Source: Leucoraja erinacea
Taxonomy: Eukaryota
Assembly: GCF_028641065.1 (NCBI RefSeq)
Contig: NC_073380.1
Coordinates: 93,806,001-93,870,000, forward strand
Length of the DNA stretch: 64,000 bases
Reading direction: 5' to 3'
Shown here: in pieces, positions 1 to 21,874 of the stretch
How positions within the stretch are numbered: position 1 is the stretch's first letter
Layout of the letters: each line of letters begins with the position of its first letter
Program-made: the position numbers and the translations under genes
Notes under the pieces: generated by a model
The model's input: only the letters and a program-made list of their open reading frames with translations
Told to the model about the DNA's origin: nothing
Databases searched by the model: none

Positions 1-440
1 CCCAGTGGCAGGTTAACCATCACAGTCCACAGGGTATCTGCACCCCAGTCCAAGCTCAACCAAGTACTGTACCACCAACAGACATGAGTCCAGAGCCCAA
101 CCGGCCACAGTCAGCGGTAGAGAGGAAGATGGAAGGAAAAAAGCCGAATGGAGCAGTCACTGGCTGTGGCTGAAGAGAAAAGATGCTGTCTGGACTGCCA
201 CGTGACCATCTAGAGGCTAATAATAAGACACACACCCAGGGCTGATCACCATGCGGTGGGCCTGCCTCGACTGAGGATGTCTTGTAATAAAAGGCCGAAA
301 CACCCAGTGACGTTGAGGTACACAACTGAAGATGTGTCTGATTGGTAGCAAAATCACCTAGTGGTCACCCCCCACGAATACCAAATGTCAATTGTAGTGA
401 TTAGTAGGACTGGATAGTAACATCCAGTCGTACTAATCAA
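1..440 (+). mobile_element. 3' remnant of a HERO-like (RLE-class) non-LTR retrotransposon, internally deleted
   Basis: 143-205 reads AEWSSHWLWLKRKDAVWTAT*, resembling the conserved AExxSxWLWLKR C-terminus of HERO-type ORFs as I recall it; followed by a structured 3' UTR. Confidence 0.6.
271..339 (+). ncRNA. Putative non-circularly permuted hammerhead ribozyme
   Basis: GTC 279-281, GAAAC 297-301, CTGAAGA 326-332. TTGT(282-285) pairs with ACAA(322-325); AGGCC(292-296) with GTGTCT(334-339, one bulge); 271-280 pairs imperfectly with 300-307. Confidence 0.5.
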
Positions 441-457
441 TATGAATCCATTAACAT

Positions 458-580
458 GTCTTTGTGATCTTGTGGGGAAAAAAATCACTCAGGGAAAACC
501 TATGTAAGTCACAGGCAGCACTGAGGTTCAGGAGCAAACCCAGGTTACTGGAGCGGTGACGTTGACCACCAACTACTGAC
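458..580 (-). mobile_element. Degenerate tRNA-derived V-SINE fragment
   Basis: Eroded similarity to the SINE copies at 8866-9190 and 24905-25182. Confidence 0.4.
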
Positions 581-2242: not shown

Positions 2243-3507
2243 TCTATCAACATAAATAAAACACTGATCTTGTGCTCTTCGGGTTTGCGCAAAATATTTT
2301 TAATATTTGCGCAAAAATGGTACACGATAGCGCTAGTATTTTCTGTTCTCACTCACCGTTCTCCTGTGCTGCAAGTGCAACGTTTCTTTCCGATCAGTAG
2401 TATATTGTAAAGGTCAGCGAGGTTTTAAAATAATAAAATAAGCGCGTGCGTAGATCGATCTCCTCTCCTGCCAGTCAGCGCTTCGCGGATTGATCTCTTC
2501 TCCTGTCAATCCCCGGGACGGTCCGCCCCTTCCTGCGCCATCGCGTCTTTACTGGAGCTGAGGATGGCGGCGGGAATCTCCAACCGGACTCTATTTTCGT
2601 AGGGACCAGAAGCGGGCTGGCCCGACATCAGAGATCTCTCTAAACGGAAAGCGGAGAGCATCCAGTGCCCGCTGTGACTCCCAAACACACCGCCATCGCA
2701 ACGCCCCACAGTTCCAGTCCCTTCTCCTCTGGTCCCCCTCGCTGGCTCCTGCCCCCCTCCCCCGTGATACCCCCATCTCCCCCATGGCTCTTCCTCCGAG
2801 CTCCATCCCTCATCCACATACCAGCGCAGCCGTTGTTGCTGGTGCTTCCAGGCCAAGCCGAGGATCCATACCAACGAATGATGCTCCTCCGGGGCATGCA
2901 GGAAGGGAGAGGAGCGGCAACCTCGAGAACCTGGGGAGTGTGGGGAGGAGAGGGGATAGAGGGTGAGGAGGGGAGAGGAGTTATGGAAGAGGAAGTGACT
3001 AGGGGCAGGGCAAAAGAGAGGCGAAGGAAGGATTGGGGGAGGGTAGGAGGAGAGGGAAAAGAACAGGGAGGAGAGTGGGGGAGGGGGAATAGAGGGGGAG
3101 GAGGTGAGAGTAAAGAAGCAGGAGAGGAGAGGAGGGGGAGTGGGGGGACGAAGGGAGTGGGGAATAGAAGGCAGTGTGGAGGTGAGGGGAGGTGAGGAAT
3201 GGGGATATGGCGAATAGAGGGATAGGAGGGGGTTAGAGAGGGGAGAGGAATTATGGAGGGAAGGAGGGAGTGACTGAAGGTAGGGGAAAGAAGAGGGAGA
3301 GAGAAGTGAGAGAGGGATTGGGGAGGGGAGAGGGGAAAGAAGAGGGGAAAGAAGAGGGAGACTGAAGAGGAGGGGGAGAGAGTGCTAGGGATGAGGGGAA
3401 ATGAGCTGCGCCTGTGCAGTTGGGGGCTATGGGTGAGTGGTGGAATATTGCGTTGGGGGACCAAGCCTCTTGTGTGACAGGGACCCAACGGGTCCCACTT
3501 AGTCTAG
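2243..3507 (+). mobile_element. Non-autonomous Helitron
   Basis: Inserted between A(2242) and T(3508); starts TC; ends CTAG (3504-3507) preceded by hairpin GGGACCC-AAC-GGGTCCC (3480-3496); no TSD. Confidence 0.8.
2935..3400 (+). repeat. Polypurine (GA-rich) low-complexity tract inside the Helitron
   Basis: About 470 bp of mostly G/A; explains the Pro/Ser/Leu-rich and Gly/Glu/Arg-rich ORFs. Confidence 0.85.
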
Positions 3508-4115
3508 TTCTGACTAAAAGGGATTATCCCTCGTTGGCACTGGATCGATCATTTAGGAATTGACTGAAATACAGATTTAAAAGTCAATTCAATATGTCAT
3601 ATTTTCCCAGAACAAATGAAACTGGATAACTAATGGCATACTCAAATTTGTATTGGCACATATTTTGTTTTGGCAAGTCAGTGGTCCTGGTATACAATTT
3701 AAGGCCACTTTATGCTGCCATTACAATTTTTAACATTTGCAAATCGCCTTGATCTAGATGCCCTGCGGTTGCGGGGTTGCCTATGAGGGTTTTGATACAT
3801 TAGATTATTTGGACCATAACTTGACTATTATCGAATTAATTACCGATGATCATGAATCACATGCTACCACAATCTAATTTACGCCTGTTACAATGTTGTT
3901 AGAACCTGTAAAATGATCTTGCATTCCAGTGAAAGGATAGTGGAAAAAAAGTGATTTTCAAAATGACTTTATCTGGTCTTAAAATGATCTTGAAATACTA
4001 ATTTCAAATATTTGTGATCTCAATAGGTGAAGCAGGCTCATATTGAATTCAACATCAGTTGACTATCTGAGGCTCCATGTTATTGCATGTACAACCAGGT
4101 CAGAGACAGTGCTTC

Positions 4116-20527: not shown

Positions 20528-20657
20528 NNNNNNNNNNNNNNNNNNNNNNNNNNNNNNNNNNNNNNNNNNNNNNNNNNNNNNNNNNNNNNNNNNNNNNNNN
20601 NNNNNNNNNNNNNNNNNNNNNNNNNNNNNNNNNNNNNNNNNNNNNNNNNNNNNNNNN
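20528..20657. other. Assembly gap (130 N)
   Basis: Run of N. Confidence 1.
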
Positions 20658-21651: not shown

Positions 21652-21874
21652 NNNNNNNNNNNNNNNNNNNNNNNNNNNNNNNNNNNNNNNNNNNNNNNNN
21701 NNNNNNNNNNNNNNNNNNNNNNNNNNNNNNNNNNNNNNNNNNNNNNNNNNNNNNNNNNNNNNNNNNNNNNNNNNNNNNNNNNNNNNNNNNNNNNNNNNNN
21801 NNNNNNNNNNNNNNNNNNNNNNNNNNNNNNNNNNNNNNNNNNNNNNNNNNNNNNNNNNNNNNNNNNNNNNNNNN
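21652..21874. other. Assembly gap (223 N)
   Basis: Run of N. Confidence 1.

Follow-up and report, generated by a model that had tools for sequence, protein, structure and literature searches.

The window analysed here is a stretch of 64,000 nucleotides (nt) from the genome of Leucoraja erinacea (contig NC_073380.1, positions 93,806,001 to 93,870,000 of the forward strand), and its first 441 nt belong to a retrotransposon. As judged by its dispersal and by a domain layout that includes a reverse transcriptase (RT), the element is a HERO-like member of the long interspersed nuclear elements (LINEs) that employ a restriction-like endonuclease (RLE). Positions 1-142, on the plus strand like all features of the element described below, hold its 5' part, an N-terminal fragment of the open reading frame (ORF; ...CICGWEKITSEKGLKIHQGKKKC...) with a C2HC-type zinc finger. 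Comparison of copies assigns positions 143-205 to the last codons of the ancestral ORF (..AEWSSHWLWLKRKDAVWTAT), closed by the stop codon TGA at 203-205, and an alignment of 30 copies assigns 206-441 to the 3' untranslated region (UTR), ending ..CTACTAATCAAT. The subject of this report is the part of the 3' UTR at positions 226-339, which comparison with related elements identifies as a decayed copy of a conserved RNA domain, built around the core of a hammerhead ribozyme.

A search of the skate's own genome (2.19 Gb) with window 200-420 returned 765 first-look candidates, and the best 40 of them, which were scored, share 93-95% identity with the query. In the 30-copy alignment, the 3' boundary of the element falls at window 441, beyond which the flanks of the copies differ; copies are spread over many contigs, in unrelated surroundings. 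Two types of copies can be told apart by their upstream part, converging near window 143. In the first type, the upstream part is the end of an ORF with a CCHC motif and a restriction-like endonuclease motif (RPD..E.T). In the second, to which the window copy belongs, the first ~150 codons are joined to the last 20 codons. The zinc finger of the N-terminal part is also found at the N-terminus of an intact ORF of 1181 amino acids in a related family (family B, see below; the family of the window copy is called A). This structure marks the window copy as an internally deleted, non-autonomous derivative. In the window copy, the last 20 codons follow the zinc-finger part in another reading frame (window 1-205, L031:7727-8173). 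The deleted form is common to many of the 30 sampled family A copies, and the high copy number may therefore mostly belong to a short derivative that keeps the ribozyme domain and the 3' end.

On the intact family B ORF, Pfam matched RVT_1 alone, while CPLC..H..C and RPD..E.T motifs are present as read by eye. Parts of a paper on the HERO clade describe it as RLE LINEs with a single ORF that are dispersed without a fixed target (PMC4640811); the element shares the single ORF, RT, C-terminal CCHC motif, restriction-like endonuclease and dispersal without fixed target. Protein relatives are named from teleosts, lamprey, amphioxus and bivalves/molluscs.

The three strands of the hammerhead core occupy window 279-339 in the order cleavage site, GAAA, CUGANGA. 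The trinucleotide GUC (279-281) is followed by UUGU (282-285), AGGCC (292-296) by GAAAC (297-301), and ACAA (322-325) by CUGAAGA (326-332), U333 and GUGUCU (334-339). An earlier note on this DNA had listed the same stretches in the same order and had placed them in the 3' UTR of a HERO-like element, about 65 nt after the ORF stop; every stretch is found there, the element is a dispersed RLE-type LINE, and the motif begins ~66 nt past the TGA of the ancestral frame. The window copy keeps all core letters. Stem mismatches, of which the note had also spoken, are present, namely A277 against C303 and A286 against C321; they affect stems III and I and not stem II, and A251 disturbs an additional hairpin (P1, see below). 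Stem III of at least 6 base pairs (bp) together with stem I of at least 5 bp occurs in 13 of 26 family copies. The window copy itself is likely to be weak or inactive.

Short motifs of this kind can arise by chance. After Markov shuffling of the window, a search of 38.2 million strand-bases for the order site, GAAA, CUGANGA with its stems gave six matches as good as the window copy (0.02 per window). The commonest family form, with 6 bp in stem III and 5 bp in stem I, was not equalled by any. A rate of 0.02 per window, which amounts to many matches over a large scan, would not by itself guard a search through many windows, and the comparative evidence is decisive. A scan for the stems without the core letters matched random sequence many times and was abandoned. 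Nested folds cannot show pseudoknots, and the z-score of -0.99 obtained with them is uninformative. In Rfam, the window had no match at gathering scores, window 150-480 matched no hammerhead family at E up to 10 and sR19 only, and the family B 3' UTR again matched no hammerhead family, only sR52 (E = 0.17) and SNORA65. The match to sR52, an archaeal C/D-box RNA, lies at L077:4883-4944 and is below threshold (17.7 bits against a cut-off of 50 bits); it is driven by UGAUG and CUGA motifs and agrees with a k-turn-like pattern described below.

The same genome contains two further families with this domain. A protein search with the last 128 residues yielded 3120 candidates, and among the best 150, which were scored, families B and C were recognised at ~65% amino-acid identity. 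Family B retains intact ORFs of 1181-1183 residues in a unit of 3981 nt. Family C is older, and a search with its protein revealed no fourth family among the 150 matches scored. All three families keep the RNA domain in their 3' UTRs, with changed letters in its helices. Stem I is UUGUG/CACAA in family A, UAGUG/CACUA in B and GUGGG/CCCAC in C; stem III is GGGUGU/ACACCC in A and B and GACGU/ACGUC in C. The strand before GAAA reads AGGCC in A and B and UCAGC in C, and its complement is located upstream, as GGCCU, GGCC and GCUGA, respectively. Position N17 is C in A and C and A in B, N7 is A in family A and U in the other two, and the block CUGAAGA of family A is CUGAUGA in B and UUGAUAA in C, where U3 is combined with A8. 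Contigs from seven other sequencing runs place families A and B in other organisms, with no new variation in the core.

More distant relatives were collected with an alignment of 16 protein relatives, which led to 72 metagenome contigs coding for relatives at 32-86% amino-acid identity; the ORF end could be placed in 43 of them. Forty loci extend at least 100 nt past the stop, and in 30 of these the motif directly follows the ORF. As to the other ten, the core is present but was missed by the scan in L100, L115 and L127 (scan window too late or one stem mismatched), the sequence ends inside the motif in L110 and L118, the motif is elsewhere in the locus in L130, L131 and L164 as well as in L110, and it was not found in L122 and L146. 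A full descriptor, including the upstream strand of stem II, matched 29 of the 43 real 3' regions compared with 1 of 12,900 shuffles. Applied to the whole loci, it matched 35 of 72 on the plus strand and none on the minus strands. Taken together, the comparison indicates that the motif is conserved and is not a chance match. That short motifs met by accident and were then multiplied by a high-copy repeat is hardly credible: the matches expected in shuffled windows lend it something at the quality of the single copy, but nothing of the kind would produce conservation and covariation in three families and 35 metagenome loci against a single hit in 12,900 shuffles.

The rules obeyed by the core were examined in two ways. 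In 27 distinct sequences, one element at a time was relaxed. Position 16.1 is U in all 27, and GAAA is likewise present in all of them with the G block left free. With N17 left free, C was found 11 times, U and A eight times each, and G never. With the C block left free, 23 sequences read CUGANGA and four UUGAN(A/G)A. In 31 distinct sequences anchored on the core, all four bases occur at N7, the pair A15.1-U16.1 is present in 31 and C-G at 15.2-16.2 in 29, and G10.1 is invariant, the first pair of stem II being G-C in 29 and G-U in two. Position 3 deviates in four of the 31, with U3/A8 in three and U3/G8 in one, representing at most three lineages. A tertiary pair between C3 and G8 is a feature of hammerhead crystal structures; U3/A8, a Watson-Crick replacement, agrees with such a pair, but the independent events are few. 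In the window copy, conservation assigns GAAA (297-300) to G12, A13, A14 and A15.1, and CUGAAGA (326-332) to C3-A9; C281 is C17 by analogy with hammerheads. All catalytic components, CUGANGA, GAAA, A15.1-U16.1, H17 and G10.1-C11.1, are thus accounted for, so that the hammerhead core is, as far as its letters tell, complete.

The stems are defined by covariation. Stem I is formed by UUGUA (282-286; UUGUG in most copies) and CACAA (321-325), and its positions 1-5 are paired in 31, 31, 31, 31 and 30 of the 31 sequences, with four pair types at each. Stem III is formed by GGAUGU (275-280; GGGUGU in most copies), whose U280 is U16.1, and ACACCC (300-305). Stem II joins GGCCU (259-263, G259 being G10.1) to AGGCC (292-296, C296 being C11.1); it is exactly 5 bp long, with positions 1-4 paired and covarying in 31 of 31 and position 6 paired in none. 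Altogether, the paired fraction of cells is 0.986, against 0.637 +/- 0.022 (maximum 0.728 in 1000 trials) when partner strands are swapped among sequences. An unedited MAFFT alignment of 32 sequences gave a covariation score of 0.497 compared with 0.175 after shuffling (0 of 500 as high) and 0.07-0.17 for slid partners; stem I was paired to 96% and stem III to 92%, while stem II and the helix Px came out lower because MAFFT misplaces the 5' end. The core conservation and covariation which the earlier note had proposed to look for in homologous 3' UTRs are therefore found, in 27-31 distinct sequences and for stems I, II and III. Stem II covaries only by means of its upstream strand.

This upstream strand is the key to the wiring of the domain. 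From 5' to 3', the order of strands is P0 5', P1 hairpin, stem II 5', Px 5', stem III 5' with the cut site and stem I 5', then stem II 3' with GAAA, stem III 3', Px 3', stem I 3' with CUGANGA and P0 3'. In relatives, the stem II 5' strand is situated 14-19 nt, mostly 15, upstream of stem III. P0, established by comparison, closes the domain by pairing AGACAC (226-231) with GUGUCU (334-339). In 20 of 33 distinct domains it starts at A9+0 or A9+1. Its length ranges from 5 to 15 bp and its sequence varies among domains; between families A (AGACAC/GUGUCU) and B (GGACAC/GUGUCC) both sides have changed. P1, read by eye, is a hairpin at 233-258 between the P0 5' strand and G10.1, in which A251 breaks one pair; its outer pairs are CACC/GGUG in A, CGCUG/CAGCG in B and GGUG/CACC in C. 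Px, again established by comparison, extends stem III and pairs CCUCGAC (265-271) with GUUGAGG (312-318), after which only UA remains before stem I. Its 3' partner is the stretch between the 3' strands of stems III and I, with a different sequence in every lineage (in families B and C, CCCUUG/CAAGGG and CCUACU/AGUAGG).

Between Px and stem III lies an internal loop, recognised by sequence pattern as UGA (272-274) on its 5' side and AGU-GA-C (306-311) on its 3' side. The 5' side ends with GA in 24 of 33 domains and the 3' side follows NNN-GA in ~22 of 33, being absent in seven. A kink-turn (k-turn) has a three-nucleotide bulge and then tandem G.A pairs between two helices, and by its sequence pattern the loop may be k-turn-like. 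The end of Px is separated from the distal ends of stems II and I by 0-1 and 0-3 nt, respectively, so the fold closes only if Px bends back toward them; presumably Px does fold back and ties stems I and II side by side, as an active hammerhead requires. Since P0 directly follows A9 and P1 runs straight into G10.1, a four-way junction of P0, P1, stem II and the core would be formed at the A9/G10.1 step. The order site, GAAA, CUGANGA makes all stems cross, in agreement with the earlier statement that the motif is none of the types I, II and III and needs a pseudoknotted fold; those types are three-way junctions without pseudoknots. In all, the wiring, as deduced from these pairings, is unlike that of every hammerhead type described in the papers searched.

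The nearest described counterparts are type-SGC hammerheads (HRIMA-1 and its variants), known from metagenomes and metatranscriptomes (Eckert, Friedrich, Weinberg and Weinberg 2023, PMC10085705). According to the sections of that paper that describe them, they share with our domain the strand order S-G-C and the core letters, a short linker between the 5' strand of stem I and the 3' strand of stem II, and several pseudoknots. In contrast, their stem II 5' strand directly follows CUGANGA, so that block C is unbroken, whereas here this strand is found upstream of stem III and A9 is followed by a separate closing helix. Furthermore, type SGC has a fourth stem that connects stems I and II on their other sides; here this part is played by the stem III extension. 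A term search of the main text and supplement of PMC10085705 found no mention of a retrotransposon context. Strand order and letters thus agree with type SGC, and five pairs of AGGCC with G(U)GUCU after CUGAAGA can be drawn, with one inserted and one bulged U. The earlier note had taken these two strands for stem II and had suggested that the cut after C281 defines the 3' end of the element RNA. Neither proposal survives comparison. The strand just after A9 pairs with that before GAAA by at least 4 bp in only 1 of 28 sequences; AGGCC has its covarying partner upstream, at 259-263, in 31 of 31, and the strand that changes together with GUGUCU is AGACAC, likewise upstream. All copies run ~160 nt beyond C281, to window 441, and the cut therefore does not set the 3' end of the element. 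A type-SGC ribozyme that trims the RNA in this way is accordingly very improbable.

Not only the shape but the letters needed for chemistry are retained, G is avoided at position 17, and positions 3 and 8 seem to behave like a pair, all of which favours catalysis. We estimate at roughly 60% the probability of our main reading, in which window 226-339 is a decayed copy of a conserved RNA domain of RLE-type (HERO-like) LINEs that has the whole hammerhead core and is predicted to cut the element RNA between C281 and U282.

The role of such a cut may be sought in the joins between copies. Thirty family B copies extend to unit position 1. In 28 of them a 3' end of at least 20 nt is attached in front of it, in another a 3' end of 9 nt, and one copy is unjoined; the upstream pieces measure from 9 nt to more than 1500 nt. 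Family B units also occur in head-to-tail arrays of 2-4 with a spacing of 3961-3982 nt. Loci with arrays are G000:C9:22173322-22185640, C14:26601289/26605267, C11:46295869/46299851, C23:17012553/17016530, C2:95337019/95340999 and C26:14996144/15000105, and several of the arrayed units have open frames of 1083-1182 residues. Metagenome contigs L133, L158 and L161 contain two ribozyme domains one unit apart, and L096, L110 and L131 one domain upstream of the ORF. From the joins of 3' to 5' ends in family B and the same layout in metagenome contigs, the template RNA appears to run across the join, as a multimeric transcript or a circle.

A cut with a linear product is one way to connect these joins with the ribozyme: in a head-to-tail pair, the ribozyme of the partial copy in front would detach the full copy behind it, at its 5' end, from read-through transcripts. 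A partial copy, in most cases with the ribozyme domain, stands before nearly every full-length family B copy, and there is a precedent in the ribozyme of R2, which resembles that of hepatitis delta virus (HDV), as parts of PMC3774820 report. cDNA copied from such an RNA would start at the cut site, yet unit position 3756 is the start of none of the ~23 upstream pieces. The element would also lose its 3' end through its own ribozyme, and upstream pieces exceeding the span between cut site and 3' end do occur. We consider a linear product improbable. A single upstream partial family B copy (L192, = G000:C29:25068420-25071500) starts at unit position 3807, the first base past A9 of CUGAUGA, and two others start at 3793; the folded domain may have halted reverse transcription at these places, or the starts may be accidental.

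The outcome we prefer is closure of a circle. A transcript that includes two ribozymes would be cut twice, which would set free an RNA of unit length. The cut halves would still be held together by ~25 bp (P0, stem II, Px and stem III), and rejoining would for this reason be favoured, closing the unit-length RNA to a circle. Reverse transcription would then start from an internal 3'-end site and proceed round the circle, resulting in insertions longer than one unit and in tandem arrays. Copying round a circle would explain the variable 3' piece in front of nearly all family B copies that reach position 1. That a widespread clade of LINEs replicates through circular RNA, cut and rejoined by a split-core hammerhead, is offered as a tentative model, and the chances seem to us to be rather against it.

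Several observations weigh against cutting or against the use proposed for it. One raw RNA run with 165 reads, giving a sparse depth of 3-10x, shows no pile-up of ends at the site. When family A copies were picked by their last 158 nt, none of 30 started at U282, and none of the ~23 upstream partial family B copies starts at the corresponding cut site (unit position 3755/3756). Head-to-tail joins can also be obtained by template jumping of the reverse transcriptase, a fair alternative to the circle. In structural terms, we know of no tested precedent for a helix junction between A9 and G10.1, and both the k-turn-like loop and the folding back of Px are deduced from pattern. The combination U3/A8, carried by family C and some relatives, is expected to lower activity. 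Finally, CUAAAGA, in which G5 is changed to A, was found in three of 30 family A copies (L014, L025 and L028), and as it goes together with subfamily markers, a source with a dead core may still have spread. In these three copies, CTAAAGA (matching window 326-332) is accompanied by the markers GGTTGG and CCCCCAAGAATATC; L015 and L016 have the same markers and retain CTGAAGA.

Some of these observations would suit a structural RNA recognised by the element's reverse transcriptase, with a hammerhead-like fold that does not cut or whose cutting is suppressed. R2 proteins recognise a pseudoknotted 3' UTR. More generally, RLE LINEs bind their template in the 3' UTR, as stated in parts of PMC12222951, and the domain is located in this very region. 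Sequence on both sides of the site is retained in all copies, no copy among those compared starts at the site, and the subfamily with G5 changed to A appears to have spread nonetheless. Mere recognition would leave every catalytic letter needless, yet N17 is never G in 27 sequences and G5, G8, G12, A13 and A14 are kept. Changes of position 3 are accompanied by A8 in three of the four variants (G8 in one), as expected of a pair in the active site, and a separate, conserved hairpin at the 3' terminus is a better candidate for a priming signal. A role in recognition alone, though it deserves to be taken seriously, therefore seems to us unlikely.

Hammerheads in retroelements have a precedent in Penelope-like elements, reportedly described by Cervera and de la Pena in 2014 and by Lunse et al. 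in 2017. These ribozymes are minimal type I hammerheads acting as dimers, in hosts with a GIY-YIG endonuclease. The present domain, in contrast, would fold as a monomer with rewired strands, and it resides in an RLE LINE. What the two systems have in common, according to parts of PMC8557442 and PMC11167929, is a hammerhead within a retroelement, partial head-to-tail repeats and a full copy flanked by ribozymes. The HDV-like ribozyme of R2 is also doubly pseudoknotted and located within an RLE-type LINE, and it is self-cleaving, as is predicted here; it differs, in the portions of PMC3774820 that deal with it, in its class, its position at the 5' end and its task of freeing the element from the rRNA co-transcript. 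Retrozymes are likewise units bounded by hammerheads, with RNA proposed to be circular and copied round (sections of PMC12029980 and of bioRxiv 10.64898/2026.07.22.740005). They are non-autonomous and use ordinary hammerhead types, whereas here an autonomous element carries the ribozyme domain and the circle is a proposal. Searches of literature outside subscription journals, including term searches of the available text of PMC10085705 with its supplement, PMC12222951, PMC13580325 and PMC4640811, brought to light no hammerhead described in an RLE or HERO LINE.

If our reading is true, the domain shows a hammerhead wiring that belongs to none of the six block orders hitherto considered, with a helical junction splitting the CUGANGA block from the stem II strand, and the core tolerates more rearrangement than assumed. 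An autonomous LINE clade, with protein relatives in fishes, lamprey, amphioxus and molluscs, would also be seen to carry a self-cleaving ribozyme in its 3' UTR. Should cutting and rejoining occur in cells, they would provide a testable explanation for head-to-tail partial repeats and would bring LINEs together with retrozymes and Penelope-like elements, for which copying by way of circles has been proposed. With its compact size of 67-84 nt, the domain may also serve RNA engineering.

Other features were noted in the surroundings of the domain. The hairpin at the extreme 3' end, common to families A, B and C (window 399-441, L077:5080-5120), reads ..GGACUUUUAACAUCUAGUCC.. in families B and C and has a related form in A; it is a candidate priming or recognition signal, separate from the ribozyme domain. 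Downstream of the ribozyme domain, the family B 3' UTR contains a C-rich run of ~6 to 20 letters (L077:4990-5015 and the same place in L078-L085). The 5' flank of the window copy (L031:7544-7750) is another repeat, which recurs at unrelated places in many of the 30 loci. Some 4-6 kb upstream of the window, ORFs resembling the C-terminal part of the ORF of another LINE (..LEYCIQFWSP..RFTRLIPGM..) are present on both strands (L031:1517-2011 and 3494-3901). Stretches masked with N, unrelated to the ribozyme domain, occupy window 20528-20657 and 21652-21874.

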